A stretch of DNA of 64,000 nucleotides. It comes from an uncultured Pseudomonadota bacterium. Lineage in GTDB: Bacteria; SAR324; NAC60-12. Below, in pieces: positions 3,429 through 64,000 of the stretch. The stretch spans positions 26,162 to 90,161 of the forward strand of contig CAYFLK010000006.1 of NCBI GenBank assembly GCA_964344035.1, written 5' to 3'. Every line of letters begins with the position of its first letter. The stretch's first letter is position 1. A program made the position numbers and the translations under genes. The notes below the pieces were generated by a model. That model saw nothing but the letters and a program-made list of their open reading frames with translations. It did not search any database and was not told where the DNA came from.

Positions 3429-4355
3429 TCACACTCGCAGTTTAAGTAATCCCGGCAGCACCTCGAATGCCGCGTTCAGACTCCCGGGCGATTCCCCGTC
3501 TATGTCCAACCACATAATTTCTTCAGATTCGAACTCCACCTTTCTGACCTGACAGTACTCTATTTCGGGAACATCAAGATGCGTGCCTTGGTAAACTTTG
3601 GGCAAATGCCGCAGAAACGTGCCCAGGGACATTTCATCCAGAAGCATCAAATCCAAGAGTCCGTCATTTAGTTCCGCGCGCGGGGCAACATGCATCCCGC
3701 CTCCAAAGAAACGTCCATTCGCCACCACCCCCAGCCGGGTCCTGATTTTCCTTTCAGGATGATCGTCAATCTTCAGCGTGACCTCTGTTTGAGGATGCGT
3801 GAAAACCTGATACAAGGTGGCCCAGAGAAACAGCGGTTTTCCCTTCAACCTTTTGATTCCTGAATGATCTCGCAGGTAGCGGTCCACGGCGCCACTCAAC
3901 CCGAAACTGGCGATATTCGCAAAATAACGAACGCTTCTGCCGCTTTTTTCATTTGTGAAGCTGACTTTTCCAATATCAAGATCAAGGATGGTTCCTTCAT
4001 TTGCAAGTGCGGAAATTCGTTCAAGCATGGATCCCCGAAAGCCGAAACTGCGTTCAAAATCACAACCTGATCCGGTCATCAGCATGCTGATTTCAACTTC
4101 GGGGTTCAACGGACGGTCTTCGACAATGGCGCCATTGAGAACTTCGTTCACCGTGCCGTCCCCGCCGACTGCGATAATCCATCGCGCGCCTTCCTCGACG
4201 GCCTCGCGTGTGAGGGTAATCCCGTCTCCGGCACACCGGGTAGTTCGCATTTCAAAGTCGCCCAATACCTCTTTCAGCCGCTTTTCCATCCGCGGCCAGA
4301 GTTTCCCGGTCCTGCCACAGCCGGCTTCCGGATTTACCAGCACATATGCTTTCAT
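3429..4355 (-). CDS. diacylglycerol kinase catalytic-domain lipid kinase (YegS/BmrU-like)
   Basis: 'AVGGDGTVNEV' GGDGT motif; 308 aa. Confidence 0.85.
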   Translation of the reverse strand: MKAYVLVNPEAGCGRTGKLWPRMEKRLKEVLGDFEMRTTRCAGDGITLTREAVEEGARWIIAVGGDGTVNEVLNGAIVEDRPLNPEVEISMLMTGSGCDFERSFGFRGSMLERISALANEGTILDLDIGKVSFTNEKSGRSVRYFANIASFGLSGAVDRYLRDHSGIKRLKGKPLFLWATLYQVFTHPQTEVTLKIDDHPERKIRTRLGVVANGRFFGGGMHVAPRAELNDGLLDLMLLDEMSLGTFLRHLPKVYQGTHLDVPEIEYCQVRKVEFESEEIMWLDIDGESPGSLNAAFEVLPGLLKLRV

Positions 4356-8714: not shown

Positions 8715-9221
8715 TCACCCGTCCAAGGAACATTGCAGGCGCTCATCGTTCCGCACAAGGTTCTTCAGCTTCCCAAGCAGCATGGTTGCGTCTTTGCCGA
8801 CAGGCCCACTCAATGAATGTATGAAGAGTCCCGAGTATTTTTCGCGCACCAGCCGGATGAAGCGAGGATGCTGAGCGGTTTCGCATCCCATCATGCCGGC
8901 CAGTGCATGCAGATGCACTCCTTTTCCACGGGCAGCTTCTTCGTCAAGCACAGTCCACTGGGATTCGATGAAGTGCCTGTGGAGCTGCGCGGTGTAATCC
9001 CAGTTTTTGCAGCCGGAAGTCCCGGATGTGCTGGCAAAAGCGAAAGTCGGTGAAAAAGTGATGTCCACCGACATCATGCCCGGGTCCTTGTGCGCAAAAC
9101 CCATGGCCCCGCCCCGGTGGCAAGCAAACAGGGGAGATCGCGCCGCAAGCAATAGGGAGAAAACAATCATCATCAGCCTAATGACGCTAGGCGCAATTAC
9201 ACCCGGTCTGAAATGATTCAT
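8715..9221 (-). CDS. small secreted protein, paralog 1 (TSGTSGCKNWD-motif family)
   Basis: Signal peptide 'MNHFRPGVIAPSVIRLMMIVFSLLLAA'; conserved 'KDPGMMSVDITFSP...TSGTSGCKNWD'; start re-picked at the internal M (the annotated ORF runs to 9281). Confidence 0.6.
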   Translation of the reverse strand: MNHFRPGVIAPSVIRLMMIVFSLLLAARSPLFACHRGGAMGFAHKDPGMMSVDITFSPTFAFASTSGTSGCKNWDYTAQLHRHFIESQWTVLDEEAARGKGVHLHALAGMMGCETAQHPRFIRLVREKYSGLFIHSLSGPVGKDATMLLGKLKNLVRNDERLQCSLDG

Positions 9222-9778
9222 GACAATCCGCAGGAAATATTCAACACCGGATCTTGTCTTATCCACTGTTTCAGATGCCACAGAATGGCAGATGGATCTT
9301 CGGACATTTGGGCGTATGCGGAAATTTCATTGAAGTGTCTGCGCAGCATCGCGTTGAACTCATGCTGGTTGGGCGGACTGCACGTCATCAGCCCGGCAAG
9401 AGCTTCCAAGCGAGGGCCTGTACCGCGCGCTGTCTCCAAAATTATGTTTTCCTTCTCCCGCTCCACAAACCGCATTCTCTCCATTTCCAGTCCGCGGGCG
9501 AAATCCCAGTTCTTGCAGCCGGAAGTACCCGATGTCGTTGCGCCGGAATAAACCGGTGAGAAGCTGATATCAACCACCGACATCACCGGATCTTTAGGCG
9601 TTGCCCCCAAAAAACCCTTGCCTGTACATTCCGCAAACAGGGATTCGGAATGCGTCAAGAAGGTCCCCAGTATTACTGAAAACAAAAAGACACGGCGCAG
9701 TCTCTTCTTCGATTGAACGCATCCAGAACGTTCCAGGAAAAAACGGGGAACTCCGGCTGCAAAAAAAGGTTCCAACAC
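9218..9778 (-). CDS. small secreted protein, paralog 2 (TSGTSGCKNWD-motif family)
   Basis: 'KDPVMSVVDISFSP...TSGTSGCKNWD' aligns with paralog 1; hydrophobic signal-like segment 'VFLFSVILGTFL'; start uncertain. Confidence 0.55.
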   Translation of the reverse strand: MLEPFFAAGVPRFFLERSGCVQSKKRLRRVFLFSVILGTFLTHSESLFAECTGKGFLGATPKDPVMSVVDISFSPVYSGATTSGTSGCKNWDFARGLEMERMRFVEREKENIILETARGTGPRLEALAGLMTCSPPNQHEFNAMLRRHFNEISAYAQMSEDPSAILWHLKQWIRQDPVLNISCGLS

Positions 9779-18718: not shown

Positions 18719-18743
18719 GGGTCAATGCATAAATAGTTGACCC
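18719..18743. promoter_or_regulatory. palindrome GGGTCAA-N11-TTGACCC immediately upstream of the MFS start codon, overlapping the left inverted repeat of the insertion-sequence remnant
   Basis: Read directly from the sequence. Confidence 0.35.
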
Positions 18744-19447
18744 TTAATAATGCATTTTATTGTATAATATCATATCATTATGTGCTAGAATAGGTGTACA
18801 TAATTGCAATGTTTTCCCACATTCACCCGCAAAACCCTGCAAATTAATTGCATGAAAGGAAATCCGATGAAAGGGAATTCGCCGGATCCAAATCAAGCAA
18901 GCTTTCTCTTCAATGGACTGAGGGAGCAGCTGAACCCCAGGCATCCGATCTACCAGCCCAGTGAGCACATCGACTGGTCATCCCTGGAGGATGATTTTGC
19001 GAGGCTGTACTCTCGTAGAGGCCGCCCAGCCAAACCAGTGCGCCTGATGGTCTCCCTTCTTCTTTTAAAACAGCTTCATGACCCCAGTGACGATCAGGTT
19101 GTTGAACGCTGGATTGAAAATCCTTACCGGCAGTTTCCCAGTGGTGAGAAAGAACTCCAATGGTCCGCTCCGGTGGCCTCATCGGACCTGACCCACTTCA
19201 GGAAGAGGATCGGCAAGAAGGGCGCTGAGCGAGTACTGAAACTGACGGTGGAACTCTTTGATGAAAAGATCAAATCAGATCAATGTCACCCTGGCCGCTA
19301 CTGCCCACAACCTGAGAAAATGGATCCGGCTCAGGCTGGATCGTTTTTTTGGGCCTTTTTTTAGAACCCTCAAATACAACTATTTACTACACTTTAGTGA
19401 CTCCAGGTCTGCTTTTTATCCAGCTATGAATTTTTAAGGGTCAACTA
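18734..19447. mobile_element. IS5-family insertion-sequence remnant bounded by 14-bp perfect terminal inverted repeats TAGTTGACCCTTAA (18734-18747 and 19434-19447)
   Basis: Inverted repeats read directly from the sequence; interior encodes a truncated DDE transposase; AT-rich. Confidence 0.6.
18849..19364 (+). pseudogene. IS5-family transposase fragment with internal deletion (N-terminal DUF772-like region fused out of frame to the C-terminal tail)
   Basis: 'GRPAKPVRLMVSLLLLKQLHDPSDDQVVERWIENPYRQFF' is the IS5 N-terminal domain; the C-terminal tail '...INVTLAATAHNLRKWIRL' is in another frame at 19290-19350. Confidence 0.6.
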
Positions 19448-19847
19448 AATACTCGTCACTGATGGTTCGTTATAAAAATAGCATAGTGTCTGGTAGAAAA
19501 AGGCGATTTGATAAAAAATGCTTTTTAACACGGAAATAGGGTCAGGTCTTTAATTATATGATTCATGATGATTCCGGCTTTTATGGTGGCTTTTAAGTGT
19601 GAGAGCAAGAATGAAAGAGGATGGCAAGAAAACGAATAGTCCATTACACCGGAGACAATGTAGAGCCCGGGATGGAGTAACCCTGAGAAACGCCGGTCGT
19701 TTTCTGTTAGAACGTGCGAGGAAAGACGCGGAGTTGAAAAATAAAAAATGAGATGAAGGAAATACAAAACATTCTGATGCTCTTTTATTCAATGGAGTGG
19801 AGAATCGTATAATCAAAGGCCTGACCCCATCACAAGCTCCTTGTGCT

Positions 19848-19913
19848 TTGCCGTGGTTTTTCAGAAGCAAGTCCTTCGCCCACGGTTACCGGTATTCTGT
19901 TTCGTTTTGAGGT
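19848..19913 (+). repeat. repeat copy A (about 66 nt): TTTGCCGTGG-N-TCAGAAGCAAGTCCTTCGCCCACGGTTACC...CGTTTTGAGG
   Basis: Aligns with copy B at 20664-20836; contains the CCGTGG/CCACGG stem. Confidence 0.6.
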
Positions 19914-19964
19914 GGTGGGGGAAAGAGAGATTGAGAGGAATGTGTGTTCTGAAGTACCAAAGAG

Positions 19965-20363
19965 TCAGTAATGCAAAGGGAGTGACAAGCGATCCAGTCC
20001 TTCAATAGCTTCGTAATCTCGGTCCAGGGTAAACAGGGTTAGATTTCGATTCAGACAGACAGTAGCGATCAGAGCATCTGTAGCCGATAGGGTCCGGCCG
20101 TTTTGTCGCAAGTCGTTCATAAGATTTCCCGCGCATTGCCAGTCTTTTCGCTCAATGGTGACCCAGCGTAGGGCGCCGAGCAAGAGCATAAACTCATCAC
20201 GATCATGCTGGCGCACAACGCGCAATAGTTCCATTTCCACAACACCGCACAGTAACACCTGATCCGCGGCAATGAGAGAATCCAGTAACATTGCGTGTTT
20301 GCTCGTTCCTTGTCTGAAGTATTCTATCCAGACGGATGTATCCACCAACACTTCATCATTCAT
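19965..20363 (-). CDS. vapC: type II toxin VapC (PIN-domain ribonuclease)
   Basis: 'LVDTSVWIEYF...' PIN N-terminus with acidic residues; overlaps the upstream antitoxin by 8 nt. Confidence 0.8.
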   Translation of the reverse strand: MNDEVLVDTSVWIEYFRQGTSKHAMLLDSLIAADQVLLCGVVEMELLRVVRQHDRDEFMLLLGALRWVTIERKDWQCAGNLMNDLRQNGRTLSATDALIATVCLNRNLTLFTLDRDYEAIEGLDRLSLPLHY

Positions 20364-20571
20364 GAGAGGCTTCTTCGATCTCAAGACTTCTCAATTCCCG
20401 AAGATTCCCCTCCCATTCCAGTCTCCCCCGATATTCTCTCAATCTTTGCAGTTTTCGTAGCCTCACCCAATCCTTCAGGGCTTGATTGACTGCTTCTGTT
20501 TTGGTGTGAGAGGTGGTTGCATGCATGACTTCATGCATCACATTATCGCTAACATTAATTGTGATTCTCAT
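20356..20571 (-). CDS. vapB: type II antitoxin VapB-family (DUF2191 / ribbon-helix-helix-like)
   Basis: 'MRITINVSDNVMHEVMHATTSHTKTEAVNQALKDWVRLRK', a typical VapB antitoxin N-terminus. Confidence 0.75.
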   Translation of the reverse strand: MRITINVSDNVMHEVMHATTSHTKTEAVNQALKDWVRLRKLQRLREYRGRLEWEGNLRELRSLEIEEASHE

Positions 20572-20663
20572 AACATCAATAATCGCTAATTGTTGACATA
20601 CAAACGAAAGTTATTTGATGACAAAAAGATCTTACCTAAGGATATTTATGAGTACAAGCATAT

Positions 20664-20836
20664 TTTGCCGTGGGTCTCAGGAGCATTTCCTTCGCCCGCG
20701 GTTACCCACATACAATAACGGTAGAGCGGGGTTTCGTCCCCGCTTGGTGCGCTGTGCAGCGGGGCGAAACCCGCGGCTACCATTCAATGAGACAGGAGGA
20801 AACTTGCGGTTGCCGATTTTCTTTTCCGTTTTGAGG
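20664..20836 (+). repeat. repeat copy B: same core as copy A but carrying an internal ~110-nt GC-rich structured insertion (two hairpins closed by GGTAG/CTACC, flanked by CCGCGG(T/C)TACC direct repeats)
   Basis: Direct alignment of 19848-19913 against 20664-20836; hairpins GAGCGGGGTTTCGTCCCCGCTT and GCGGGGCGAAACCCGC. Confidence 0.6.
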
Positions 20837-20891
20837 GGAACGGAAATGTGCTAAACTTTCTAAAAGCAATTCCCCAACAACAAGGAACAAG

Positions 20892-21446
20892 ATGGAAGAG
20901 GAGATTCCCACCGGCGATGGTTTGACCTTTGAGAAGGTCTGGCTGATGTTTCAGGAGACGAGACAGCAGTTTCAGGAGACCGATGCCCGAATCGAGAAAT
21001 TGAATCAGGAGACCAATAAAATAATCAGCGTACTTGGCGACAAATGGGGACACTTCGTGGAAGGGGTGGTCGAGCCTTCAATGGTGCGCCTCTTCAACGA
21101 ACGAGGTATTCCCATCGAAGAAACCGCTCAACGACTCAAGAAACGGGTTGACGGCGAAAGCATGGAAGTGGATTTGCTGGGATTCAATGGGGATGAGGTC
21201 GTGGTTGTTGAGGTCAAAAGCACCTTGACCGTTGAAGACGTTCGAGACCATCTTTACAGGCTGGAAAATTTCAAACGTTTTTTCCCCCGATATGCTGGAA
21301 ACCGCTTGATCGGGGCAGTGGCCGGAATGGTGATCGTTGAGGAAGCGGATAAATTTGCTTATCGACAGGGTTTGTTCGTGATCTTACCTTCCGGAGACAC
21401 CGCGCAGCTGCTCAACGATAAGAACTTCCAACCAAAACACTGGTAA
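20892..21446 (+). CDS. hypothetical PD-(D/E)xK nuclease-fold protein with N-terminal coiled coil
   Basis: 'EVDLLGFNGDEVVVVEVKSTL' gives a D...E-V-K catalytic-like arrangement; 184 aa. Confidence 0.55.
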   Translation: MEEEIPTGDGLTFEKVWLMFQETRQQFQETDARIEKLNQETNKIISVLGDKWGHFVEGVVEPSMVRLFNERGIPIEETAQRLKKRVDGESMEVDLLGFNGDEVVVVEVKSTLTVEDVRDHLYRLENFKRFFPRYAGNRLIGAVAGMVIVEEADKFAYRQGLFVILPSGDTAQLLNDKNFQPKHW

Positions 21447-21601
21447 AACATCGAATAAGACCGCGGATTACAATTTTATATTGGGTCCGGGCATGACCCG
21501 GACGTCGAAGCCGGCGTTTGGGTTGTTTTTGGCTTTTATTGTATGCGTGGATTTGCCGCCGGGAAGGAATGCGGGGGATAAAGCGTCCCCCGCAATGATA
21601 T

Positions 21602-22660
21602 TTACTGGGTGGGAATCTTGGAGATCACGCCTTTGACGTAATAATTCATGGAGAGCATTTCCCCGTCATTCAAGGCTTGGCTGATTCGGGTCCCGTCCTG
21701 TTTGGTGACCCCGTTGCGGAACACATCCGAGGCCCCGCTGACGAGCTGCCCTTTCGCGCTGTTGACCTTGTCAATCAGAGATTGCGGGATGTCAGGATGG
21801 AACGAAGTCAACCCGACGATGCCCGAATCGATGCCCCACCAGTCGGCGGCGGGTTTCCACGATCCGGATTCCACTGCCTTCGCGGCGTGCAGATAATACA
21901 CGTCCCAGTTCCAGACTGCCGCGGTCAGGTGTGCTTCCTTGCCGTAGATTGACATGTCGGAGTCGTTCCCGATCGCGAACACACCGTTTTTCTTTGCGAC
22001 CTGCACCGGAGAAGCGGAGTCGGCGGTGGTGATGATGATGTCCGCGCCGTTGTCGATAAGTGCCTGGGCGGCATCGCCTTCCTTGGTCGGGTCAAACCAG
22101 CTGTTGATCCAGATGACTTCCACTTCAATTCCCGGATTGACCTGCTGCGCACCCATGGTCATCGCGTTGATGTGACGTATGATTTCCGGAATCGGCTGCG
22201 AACCGACGATGCCGATGCGGCCTTTTTTTGACATCCCCGCGCCAATCATCGCGGCCAGGTACTTGGCCTGATACATCCGACCGAAGTAATTGCCCATGTT
22301 GTCGGCCTGTTTGAAGCCGGAACAATGGAGAAACACTTTGTCAGGAAACTTTCCCGCGACTTTCAGCGTCGGGTCCATGTATCCGAAGCTGGTTGTGAAC
22401 ACGATGTCGTTTTTGCGCGCAAGTTTGCGGATCACGCGTTCAGAATCGCCTTCCGGAACACTCTCTACATATTCCGTCTTGTATCCCGCCGCTTCCAGGG
22501 CCTTGCGACCGAGATCATGCGCGTATGTCCAGCCTCCGTCCCCGATGGGGCCGACGTACACGAAAGCCGCGGTAGGCTTGCCCGCCCACGCGGCGCCTCC
22601 CAGAACAAGCAGCATTGCCGCCGCCAGCGCGGCGATTTTGGATGGAATGGTTTTCATACA
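21602..22660 (-). CDS. BMP-family ABC transporter substrate-binding lipoprotein (nucleoside-binding PnrA-like)
   Basis: Signal peptide 'MKTIPSKIAALAAAMLLVLGGAAWA'; BMP-family length and pattern. Confidence 0.85.
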   Translation of the reverse strand, partial: CMKTIPSKIAALAAAMLLVLGGAAWAGKPTAAFVYVGPIGDGGWTYAHDLGRKALEAAGYKTEYVESVPEGDSERVIRKLARKNDIVFTTSFGYMDPTLKVAGKFPDKVFLHCSGFKQADNMGNYFGRMYQAKYLAAMIGAGMSKKGRIGIVGSQPIPEIIRHINAMTMGAQQVNPGIEVEVIWINSWFDPTKEGDAAQALIDNGADIIITTADSASPVQVAKKNGVFAIGNDSDMSIYGKEAHLTAAVWNWDVYYLHAAKAVESGSWKPAADWWGIDSGIVGLTSFHPDIPQSLIDKVNSAKGQLVSGASDVFRNGVTKQDGTRISQALNDGEMLSMNYYVKGVISKIPTQ

Positions 22661-57445: not shown

Positions 57446-57732
57446 CGGGTTTCCAATTTACAGTCTCTTTGGGCGGAATTCCTGTATATCCGGTTCCTCT
57501 TATCCTCATCAGGCCATGCGAGCATCAAGCCAAAGTAACGGGGAAATGACACCTTTTAAGAGTATGGACAGAGTGCGGGAAACACTGTCTGTCAACTGAA
57601 GAGGACATGCATGGCAGTGTTATTTTGGGGAACCCGGAATGGCTCCTGCTGGTGTCGCGGAGACTGCCGATTCACCGGAAAGCGGTTAAGACCCGCCACA
57701 CCAGACTTTATGCGGAGATTCAGTTCCCCCTG

Positions 57733-58392
57733 TCACTTGGCTGGATCCGCGACTTTCAAGGCTGCTTTGAGGAGGGGGAGGATGCAGCCGCTGTACTCGA
57801 CCCTGCCATCAGGCATAGTGGTGTTGCAGAGTAATGAACCGGTCATTTCCGCTTTGTCGAGGTTGGCGCCTTTCAGGGTTGCCGATTTCAGGTCCGCACC
57901 CTGCAGGTTGGCGCCGCGCAGGTTGCTGATGCCGAAATCCGCCACCGACAAATTGGCGTCTTCAAGATCGGCGCCCTGCAAGTCCGCTCCAAGCAGGACC
58001 GCTCCACGCAAATCGGCGGATTTGAGGTTTGCGACTCCCAGTTCCGCGACAGACATGTTCGCCCCTCCCAGCATCGCGCCTTTAAGGTCCGCCCCACGCA
58101 GGTCGGTCCCGCGCATGTTCGCGCCTTCCAGGTTTGCGCCGCGCAGGTTTGCTCCCTGCAGGTTCGCCCCGCGAAGGTTTGCCCCCTGCAGTTCAGCGGA
58201 AGCGAGATCGGCCCCGCTGAGGTTTACGTTCGGAAGATTCACCTGCCTAAGGTCTGACTTGGCCAGATCGCACTTGACGCATTCAAGCTTGCTCTGCAAC
58301 CGTTCCAGGTCTCCGGGCTCCACGGCTACTGCCCACGAACCCCATGCCAGTGTGAACGGGACCCACACCAGCAACAAAAACTGTTTCCTCAT
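57733..58392 (-). CDS. secreted pentapeptide-repeat protein
   Basis: About 30 consecutive A(D/N)LxG pentapeptides ('ANLRGANLQGANLRGANLEGANMRG...'); signal peptide. Confidence 0.85.
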   Translation of the reverse strand: MRKQFLLLVWVPFTLAWGSWAVAVEPGDLERLQSKLECVKCDLAKSDLRQVNLPNVNLSGADLASAELQGANLRGANLQGANLRGANLEGANMRGTDLRGADLKGAMLGGANMSVAELGVANLKSADLRGAVLLGADLQGADLEDANLSVADFGISNLRGANLQGADLKSATLKGANLDKAEMTGSLLCNTTMPDGRVEYSGCILPLLKAALKVADPAK

Positions 58393-58590
58393 CGTTAGTC
58401 TGTTTGAATGAAATAGCACAAATTTTACCACTTTATCGTTTTTACCGATAAAGTCCAGAAAGATGTAAGGAGTTGGATGAATTGATACTCAAATAATGTG
58501 TTTAAATCAGTGCGCTTTTTTTAATTGTGCCAAAATGTGATAGTTTTGGTTTTTGGAAAAGACAGATACCCAAAACCGGATATTCCGTCG

Positions 58591-62187: not shown

Positions 62188-62522
62188 TTTCCATGCACGC
62201 GCCTGTGAACAGGGTACGCTGCGGGTACTGGTCATTGACGAGGCAGTCGAACTCGTATCCGCCCCGGCGGAAGCGGACCTGAAATCCCGGCTACGGCGCA
62301 TGCCTCCGCCCGTAAAAATCATCCAAAGCGGAAACTGGACCACTCAAATCTATCCCGGTCGCCTCAGCGATGCTTACGAAAATAACGCCCGCCGTGTCTG
62401 GTGGTTTCTTCCGCGGCGTGGAACTGACTGGTTGTTTAAGCGTTGACGCTAATGCGGTCTTAAACGCTCCATTATTCCCGGTCTCCAACACTCTTTGCAC
62501 ATTTGGCGGTATCCCGCGGGAA

Positions 62523-63085: not shown

Positions 63086-64000
63086 TGCATGAGCCGATTC
63101 AAAATGCGGGTCATAACTGCCTGGACAGTAAAGCCTCTGAGGTGGATGTGTTTCAACATTTTCGCATTTAACTTACATTTCCTCCACACAAGATGGAAGG
63201 CAAATTGTTCCATGAATACCATGTACATTAACCCCTCCGGACATCACTCCGCGAACCTGCGGGCATCGTCCGACTAACCCATATCCCCCGAGGCATCTTG
63301 GTCTCAACAATCCTCGAAAACGCACGCCGCGACTGGTGGTTTCTTCCTGAAAACAGCCAGGGCCGTTAGCCTGTTTTTGCGGCTGTAGAAAACTTTTTTT
63401 CAAAAAACAGGGGAAATTCCCGGAAATCAGCATTTTTTCTTCACTATTTTCGCCTAAATCCACTCTCATTTTTTTTCCATTTTTTCTGCTGACAGACAAT
63501 TCTGTAAAAATCGATATAAATAAAAAGTTTGTAATATCAATAAATTACAGAAATATGGTAAAATTCAGAATTATTCATGCATGTAACTAACTGATATTAT
63601 TTATATAATAATTGCTCATCTATACAATTGCATTTCTTGACATTTGTGCTATTGATGAGATTCGGCATTTTTCCGAGGCCGGGCTTTGCAGAAAATGGGA
63701 CCACGGGTTTGTTTCCATTGAAGTGAAAACTGTCCATCGATTATTGCAAACACGACTCCATGATGAAGCCCTCATGGGCGCGTGTTCAACCAAACCCTTC
63801 CCGCAGATGAACCGCCAATGCCTCATTTTCCGGATCAACAGTCCCGTTCAATCATCCGCAGGGCCTGATACCGGATGCCCGGAACCAAGCTGAATTTTTA
63901 GATGCTGATATCATGTTGTTTTTTCAGAAACCGCACCCATGCATGAAATAATATGATGAAATTTCATTTTTTGTCCGTCCAAGCATAATAACAGAGGATG

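Follow-up and report, generated by a model that had tools for sequence, protein, structure and literature searches.

When two copies of a short repeat stand on either side of a toxin-antitoxin (TA) operon, does the repeat mark the boundary of that operon, or does it belong to a neighbouring gene? The question is raised by a 64,000-nt stretch of DNA from an uncultured SAR324 bacterium (this whole stretch is referred to here as the window), in which copies A and B of a 66-nt repeat flank a vapC-vapB pair and copy B is followed by a gene of the DUF3782/DUF8196 family. A preliminary description of the locus had proposed a small repeat or RNA element family serving as an insertion target or as the boundary of a TA cassette. 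We lean towards another answer, namely that the repeat is an upstream module of the DUF3782/DUF8196 gene, that copy A is an orphan of such a module, and that the hairpin-forming part of the repeat (HP, for hairpin) is a hairpin-prone site at the level of the DNA.

Copies A and B are direct repeats on the plus strand and are identical at 55 of 66 positions once an extra segment is removed from B; their alignment (B without 20707-20814) requires one single-base gap, and the homology extends from TTTGCC through TTGAGG. The earlier observation of two copies of a roughly 65-nt repeat in the same orientation thus stands, at a length of 66 nt and with the boundaries of copy A corrected to those in Table 1. 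The 19-nt core of the repeat (TCCTTCGCCCRCGGTTACC) occurs exactly twice in the 64 kb, even when up to three mismatches are allowed, vs. an expectation of 0.04. We read the 66 nt as a 43-nt imperfect palindrome (HP) followed by a 22-nt spacer, which would run into the -35 region of the DUF3782/DUF8196 promoter.

To which gene the repeat belongs is best seen from homologous loci. The DUF3782/DUF8196 protein has 1583 homologues at E 1e-5 or better in what is often a multi-copy family, and E92, D94, E107 and K109 are invariant, forming a PD-(D/E)xK-type motif (a search of the literature on DUF3782 found nothing relevant). At locus L017, where the protein is 85% identical, the contig begins inside HP and continues as an uninterrupted copy of HP, spacer and TTTTAGAGG, with the gene directly after; this upstream copy (CGCGGGTTCTCAGAAACATGTCCTTCACCCACGGCTGCCGATTTACTTTTCGTTTTAGAGG) is colinear with copy B minus 108 nt. 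At locus L018 (protein 63% identical) only the 43-nt hairpin part is found, inverted, with 85% identity over 41 nt. Because copies of the repeat accompany DUF3782/DUF8196 homologues in both L017 and L018, we assign the repeat to the upstream region of that gene; the same two loci show that it is more than a local segmental duplication, the outcome that would have deprived it of any wider significance.

The hairpin part behaves as a unit of its own. L044, which is 98% identical to L018 and represents the same locus, is without a 317-nt segment that ends exactly at the inverted HP, and its promoter and gene are intact. This indel (L018 4363-4679 vs. L044 1034/1035) carries the end of a 76-aa open reading frame (ORF) together with the inverted HP, and its right junction falls at the HP foot. 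Since gene and promoter survive both its inversion (L018) and its absence (L044), HP counts as a discrete unit, and we would describe it as an orientation-independent, dispensable extragenic palindrome. A profile built with nhmmer from four hairpins (copy A, copy B, L017 and L018, the same four sequences that served for the alignment and covariation analyses below) scored 36-46 bits on those four and no more than 16 bits on all other DNA fetched, the remainder of the window included. Rearrangement junctions lie at the feet of HP in three cases: the 108-nt indel at the 3' foot in copy B, the 317-nt indel plus inversion between L018 and L044, and the start of the A/B homology at the 5' foot. Three independent junctions of this kind favour a hairpin-prone DNA-level site where rearrangements end, and HP would most likely act in this way, as a hairpin- or cruciform-prone site at which insertions, deletions and inversions terminate. 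It would thereby be similar to those small palindromes that have REP dimers (repetitive extragenic palindromes, see below) within or beside them.

The promoter of the gene points in the same direction. A motif fitting TGnTAnACT precedes the start codon by 33-39 nt in five loci (the window, L017, L018, L020 and L024), and stands ~90 nt before the annotated start in L040; it reads TGCTAAACT in the window, L020 and L040, TGCTAGACT in L017 and L024, and TGGTACACT in L018. It is strongly conserved across homologues of 55-85% identity, one of them from an AT-rich genome, and 15-17 nt upstream of it lies the repeat-terminal block TTTTGAG(G), which fits a -35 region (in copy B the -35-like hexamer is TTGAGG at 20831-20836). 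From this conservation we infer that TGnTAnACT is the extended -10 element of the DUF3782/DUF8196 gene. As the motif is downstream of copy B, copy B is upstream of the likely transcription start, and it is probably promoter-upstream DNA and not the 5' leader of the PD-(D/E)xK gene, the role first ascribed to it. A generic promoter scan did not call the TGnTAnACT site and reported a weak site at 20618-20646, at a level no higher than chance expectation. In the more distant homologue L042 (gene at 4001), a different long inverted repeat, AACTACAAGGAT...ATCCTTGTAGTT at about 3750-3850, lies directly upstream of a TTGACA-17-TATTAT promoter, and genes of this family may thus recurrently have a palindrome ahead of their promoters.

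Table 1. Features of the repeat locus and its surroundings, in coordinates of the window.
Feature	Position	Strand	Description
IS5-like remnant	18737-19447	+	12-nt inverted ends GTTGACCCTTAA / TTAAGGGTCAAC; broken DUF772 transposase ORF
295-bp element	19536-19830		29-nt terminal inverted repeats (86% complementary); 17 nt left of copy A
Copy A	19847-19912	+	66 nt: HP_A 19847-19890 (stem CCGTGG/CCACGG), 22-nt spacer, terminal CGTTTTGAGG; nhmmer 45.9 bits
vapC	19965-20363	-	PIN 4.4e-16; NCBIfam TA_toxin_VapC 1.9e-26, above cut-off
vapB	20356-20571	-	VapB_antitoxin 1e-9
Copy B, part 1 (hairpin module HP_B)	20664-20706	+	7-9 bp outer stem, 4-bp inner stem; nhmmer 41.2 bits
8-nt direct repeat, first copy	20699-20706	+	CGGTTACC; left edge of extra segment; single-copy in A (19883-19890) and L017
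100-nt segment	20707-20806		Present in B, absent from A and L017; colinearity with both restored by removing 20707-20814
Palindrome GGTAG...CTACC	20720-20781		Two inverted ~25-nt GTAG-tagged hairpin units (20720-20744, 20758-20781), separated by 13 nt
Copy B, part 2	20807-20836	+	8-nt repeat CGGTTGCC (20807-20814), spacer, CGTTTTGAGG; 83% over 30 nt (direct-repeat family D3)
Putative extended -10 element	20849-20857	+	TGCTAAACT, fits TGnTAnACT; 34 nt before ATG
DUF3782/DUF8196 gene	20892-21446	+	184 aa; PD-(D/E)xK-like motif (ExD ... EVK); weak YraN-like and NERD matches

On this evidence copy B would be the resident, working copy of the region upstream of the DUF3782/DUF8196 gene (20892-21446), interrupted by the 108-nt indel with its dimer of GTAG-tagged palindromes, and copy A would be an orphan upstream region, old or paralogous, truncated just past the -35 region. 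Downstream of copy A there is neither a gene nor a recognisable -10 element, despite its -35-like block. The divergence between A and B (83% identity) is about that of either copy from L017 (~79-82%, our estimates from alignments), which makes copy A old or paralogous and argues against a recent local duplication. In this respect the locus resembles relics of duplicated promoters in genomic islands, for in copy A the region upstream of a nearby gene is repeated as far as the -35 region and no further, amid low-GC debris of insertion sequences (IS) and inverted repeats; it differs from such relics in that the divergence of A from B matches that of B from a homologue in another organism, and in that the palindrome moves independently elsewhere.

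Could the repeat instead work as RNA, either as a cis-regulatory leader or small RNA that controls the nuclease gene, or as an antisense or 3'-end element of vapBC? We give this hardly any credence. The 66 nt are weakly structured, with a possible outer stem of 7-9 bp (CCGTGG(G)/(C)CCRCGG) and a 4-bp inner stem. The CCGTGG/CC(A/G)CGG stem of the preliminary description can form in both copies, and its A/G difference does change a U-A pair in copy A to a U-G wobble in copy B; in L017, a C-A mismatch stands at this position, so that the very pair cited is broken. Folded as a 71-nt RNA, copy A was equal to its shuffles (z +0.5 and +0.1), and the 44-47-nt hairpin alone reached z -1.0 (A), -2.3 (B) and -2.2 (L018). 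To call the repeat structured overstates its fold, which is weak and in copy A no better than shuffled sequence.

Across the four aligned HP sequences the stem was paired in 91% of cells vs. 43-57% with slid partners, which speaks for the RNA reading, as do purine transitions in the inner stem that keep A-U or G-U pairing on the plus strand, one double change from A-U to G-C in an alternative register, and the weak promoter-like site upstream of copy B. Against it, no measure of covariation over the four sequences exceeded shuffled controls, and six of nine outer-stem pairs never vary. Folding and covariation, the checks first proposed for this repeat, thus returned a stem whose pairing is mostly kept and, with n = 4 sequences, a covariation signal no higher than in shuffles. 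Rfam returned only a tRNA elsewhere when the whole window was searched at the gathering threshold, and only noise for 19500-21000 at E up to 10, so that the repeat has neither covariation above shuffles nor a match to a curated family to place it among structured RNAs. Also at odds with a role as RNA are the inversion (L018) and loss (L044) of HP with promoter and gene intact, the conserved -10 motif downstream of the repeat, and the 108 nt that separate HP from the remainder of the repeat in the window. A role of HP as a terminator was considered and rejected: no T-run follows HP on either strand, and the scan did not report one there.

The extra DNA in copy B amounts to 108 nt, made up of 100 nt (20707-20806) and one additional copy of the 8-nt direct repeat, and copy A and L017 represent empty sites for it. 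The boundaries given earlier for this insertion of about 110 nt were wrong. The supposed right boundary, CCGCGGCTACC (20771-20781), is actually the 3' foot of the palindrome, inside the extra segment, and 25 nt more follow before the homology to A begins. Nor does the palindrome fold as two strong hairpins closed by a GGTAG/CTACC helix, as had been thought: its minimum-energy fold is one long imperfect hairpin, each arm of which is also a small palindrome. This palindrome is the longest close-range inverted repeat of the window, where it occurs once, and its predicted folding is strong (RNA, -40 kcal/mol, z -4.3 on the plus and -6.5 on the minus strand; DNA parameters, z -5.0).

Whether copy B gained this DNA or the other copies lost it can be argued both ways. 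An 8-nt repeat flanks the extra segment, and it may be either a duplication made upon insertion or an older microhomology that was exploited for deletion. Palindromes are known to promote deletion between short direct repeats, and the state of A and L017 could equally have arisen by deletion between the 8-nt repeats as that of B by insertion. We rejected the 100-nt segment as a miniature inverted-repeat transposable element (MITE): it has no inverted repeats at its ends (CACATAC... / ...AACTTG), the palindrome lies in its interior, and the window contains just one copy of it.

Related units occur in other loci. The left unit of the palindrome, GGTAGAGCGGGGTTTCGTCCCCGCT, matches in inverted orientation 23 of 25 nt of a single hairpin, GAGCGGGGGCGAAATCCCGCTCTACC, that lies immediately upstream of the promoter in L044; L018 shares this unit, and from the unit to the gene its DNA is colinear with the right part of the extra segment (score 41 vs. 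20.7 ± 3.6 for shuffles). At the equivalent place upstream of the promoter, L024 and L025 carry GGTAGGGGCAGGTTTCAAACCnGCCCCTAC, another form of GTAG hairpin. The recurrence of such units at an equivalent place in L018/L044 and in L024/L025 indicates that a GTAG-type hairpin is an old companion of this promoter in several lineages.

Families of repetitive extragenic palindromes (REP), and of the REP doublets known as REPINs, number tens to hundreds of extragenic copies per genome; the genomes that hold them are expected to encode a cognate RAYT (REP-associated tyrosine transposase, a Y1 transposase), usually flanked by REPs, and insertion takes place without target-site duplication. GTAG REPs have been defined as short imperfect palindromes that bear the tetranucleotide GTAG at one end and whose head-to-head dimers fold into one hairpin (PMC3733652), and REP dimers are reported to lie often within or beside other small palindromes (PMC3733652). 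The palindrome in copy B fits this definition, with GGTAG plus AGCGGGGTTTCGTCCCCGCT at one end and a partner ending in ...CTACC. As in GTAG REP dimers or REPINs (Di Nocera et al. 2013, PMC3733652; Bertels and Rainey, PMC3337134), 20720-20781 contains two inverted hairpin units of ~25 nt with outer GTAG/CTAC tags and a short spacer, is extragenic, forms one long stem-loop, and stands at the foot of another small palindrome; the single unit at the equivalent place in L018/L044 is a further likeness. Unlike GTAG REPs, it is present in one copy in 64 kb, with no others in L001, L018 or L044 or elsewhere in the related loci read, and no RAYT gene was seen: the 61 window ORFs that reach 90 aa include no Y1_Tnp/RAYT and no integrase, though a RAYT gene could lie in another part of the genome. 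An 8-nt direct repeat flanks the segment, 10 and 25 nt of non-palindromic DNA lie on either side of the palindrome, and the related units in three lineages are all upstream of homologous genes and are not scattered.

The resemblance leads to a rival explanation in which HP and the GTAG units are dispersed miniature repeats (REP/REPIN- or MITE-like), numerous elsewhere in the genome and mobilised by a transposase encoded outside the window; A and B would then be two independent insertions, and the link with the nuclease gene a preferred insertion context. We regard this as unlikely, while recognising that several observations suit it: HP occurs in either orientation, and within an indel between strains that are 98% identical; between the window and the distant locus L018, HP is 85% identical whereas the coding DNA is 66% identical; the GTAG/CTAC tags are at the outer ends of the palindrome, as in head-to-head REP dimers beside small palindromes (PMC3733652); and the L017 and L019 contigs begin inside HP, as might be expected of repeats, which can break assemblies. 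What tells against it is copy number, with two HP copies and one GTAG palindrome in 64 kb and no extra HP copy in 9 kb of L018. The A/B homology also continues for 22 nt past HP into the promoter region, which is not expected of independent insertions. The window contains no Y1 or DDE transposase besides the IS5 remnant, and the 8-nt flanking repeat would be unexpected for movement of the RAYT type, given the established mechanisms of IS200/IS605-like elements.

Searches beyond the window bear on the same point. No further copy of the repeat was found, whether in the rest of the 64 kb or in GTDB species representatives, JGI metagenomes, viral contigs and plasmids. In 185,579 GTDB species-representative genomes the exact 19-nt core had nine matches, close to the number that we estimate for chance, and their flanks are unrelated to the window. 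Three of the nine (L011, L014 and L015) belong to an unrelated repeated element containing the same 19-mer in the Bacillota metagenome-assembled genome DULU01; its copies sit at the ends of three contigs or close to them, and the sequence around them has nothing in common with the window. A looser two-block pattern had six matches in JGI metagenomes, all in GC-rich coding DNA and all scoring 16 bits or less against the HP profile. Among viral contigs the DNA pattern produced only chance matches in coding sequence, and a protein-based search for the nuclease family found none; in the plasmid collection, blastn in distant mode found nothing for copy A, copy B or the 295-bp element. The window itself matches metagenome contigs of ENA PRJEB17505 at 99.9-100% identity, none of which differs at the locus. 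Of the proposed small repeat or RNA element family, what survives is that related copies exist in other organisms (L017 and L018); support for an RNA, or for a wider family, does not emerge.

The varying arrangement of the two palindromic modules also recalls the bacterial interspersed mosaic elements (BIMEs) of Escherichia coli, in that HP and the GTAG unit occur in varying order, orientation and number at one intergenic position in a set of related loci. BIMEs, however, are found in many copies throughout the genome and have defined REP subtypes as well as motifs for the binding of host factors; the modules described here, unlike them, are known only upstream of one gene family.

We then considered the TA operon itself. 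The two genes overlap by 8 nt, with a PIN toxin gene after a small antitoxin gene, as in type II VapBC modules. As first reported, the pair lies between the copies of the repeat; no other gene does, and the gaps to the two copies measure 52 and 92 nt. Chromosomal integron arrays commonly contain TA cassettes that have promoters of their own, and HP could on that model be a recombination site bounding mobile cassettes, either attC-like or the crossover site of a circular element; a vapBC circle would have entered by a single crossover at HP, leaving one hybrid copy on each side. This would account for direct repeats that enclose a single self-contained TA operon complete with promoter region, for the gathering of breakpoints at the HP feet, and for the reverse complement of HP that follows both vapBC (on the minus strand) and the small ORF of L018.

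We consider a recombination site distinctly improbable all the same. The attC core motifs RYYYAAC / GTTRRRY were absent from both strands at 19820-19940, 20640-20860 and 21440-21610, that is, at copy A, at copy B and downstream of the nuclease gene. HP, at ~43 nt and with a single stem of 7-9 bp, is shorter than an attC site (about 57-141 nt), and neither an integrase nor another recombinase is present among the 61 ORFs. On these grounds, and because there are just two copies with no third after the nuclease gene, HP was rejected as an integron attC. What likeness to attC sites there is lies in similar direct repeats with hairpin potential around a TA operon that has its own promoter; beyond the missing motifs, the missing integrase, the single, too short stem and the lack of a repeat after the next gene, the HP repeat differs from attC sites in that its conservation goes along with that of the neighbouring gene's promoter. 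In L043, which holds the closest VapC homologue (70% identity) for which flanking DNA is available, there is no repeat downstream and unrelated sequence follows the stop codon, and 83% identity over 66 nt would be a poor substrate for homologous recombination. The idea of an insertion target or cassette boundary is thus only in part sustained: a site prone to insertion or recombination fits the data, but copies elsewhere accompany DUF3782/DUF8196 genes, not vapBC. The comparison with a relative lacking vapBC, which had been proposed as a check, retrieved only L045, from which the whole island is missing, and so yielded no informative empty site for vapBC.

That island is visible in base composition, with 40-50% GC at 18.75-21.5 kb vs. 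54-60% in both flanks, and it holds the IS5-like remnant, the inverted-repeat element of 295 bp, vapBC and the nuclease-like gene. Source-metagenome contigs end within the IS5-like remnant, which suggests other copies in that genome. The 295-bp element ends in AGGGTCA, resembling the end of the adjacent IS remnant, and has no second copy in the window. L045, a distant relative with the same BMP-permease operon (BMP protein 74% identical), has none of the island: after its BMP gene come first a small ORF and next an amidase gene, which in the window lies ~7 kb further on. The gene that would once have followed copy A may have been lost or replaced as vapBC, the 295-bp element and the IS5-like element accumulated in this low-GC island, and the position of vapBC between the copies would be a by-product of the assembly of the island, with the repeat no part of the TA cassette. 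Elsewhere in the window we noted eleven copies of a repeat with 15-nt periodicity (57844-58194), pentapeptide-repeat-like, inside an ORF (57611-58411) with no Pfam match at 1e-4; a 29-nt direct repeat (62384-62412 and 63319-63347; 90% identity, 935 nt apart) near small ORFs without a Pfam match; and two adjacent paralogous DUF3015 genes on the minus strand (8715-9778).

Several points weigh against our assignment of the repeat to the upstream region of the DUF3782/DUF8196 gene. It draws on four independent HP sequences only, and all of the comparison DNA consists of short metagenome contigs; that of L017 starts inside HP, so that the DNA farther upstream, which might hold a TA module, falls outside the contig. 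No remnant of a second nuclease gene was found beside copy A by tblastn, and the lost gene is thus something that we infer. The HP copy number that we report is that of the 64 kb. Our promoter prediction uses conservation only; the scan pointed instead to 20618-20646, upstream of B, and if that site were active, copy B would be transcribed. Finally, a circular cassette integrated by a single crossover would likewise leave direct repeats exactly on either side of a self-contained TA operon. Notwithstanding these points, we still lean towards the upstream-module reading. A further idea, that a small mobile cassette centres on the DUF3782/DUF8196 PD-(D/E)xK nuclease and has HP and the GTAG hairpins as its cis-acting sites, seems to us very improbable; under it, the palindromes that precede the nuclease gene would be the substrate of the nuclease itself or of a partner recombinase, the cassette would in this way pass from one genomic context to another, and modules such as vapBC could be captured between duplicated sites.

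In itself the repeat is a small local curiosity, with no sign of a structured RNA or of a widespread repeat family. It holds a lesson for annotation, as direct repeats around a TA pair invite the label of a cassette boundary, whereas the homologous loci assign this repeat to the neighbouring gene. For a GTAG-type palindrome dimer lying at the foot of a second palindrome, the locus also documents an occupied site along with empty ones. More generally, palindromes tend to lie shortly ahead of a conserved promoter in a very large and uncharacterised PD-(D/E)xK-like family (>1500 homologues), and these upstream palindromes could be a lead to the regulation or the movement of PD-(D/E)xK-like genes.

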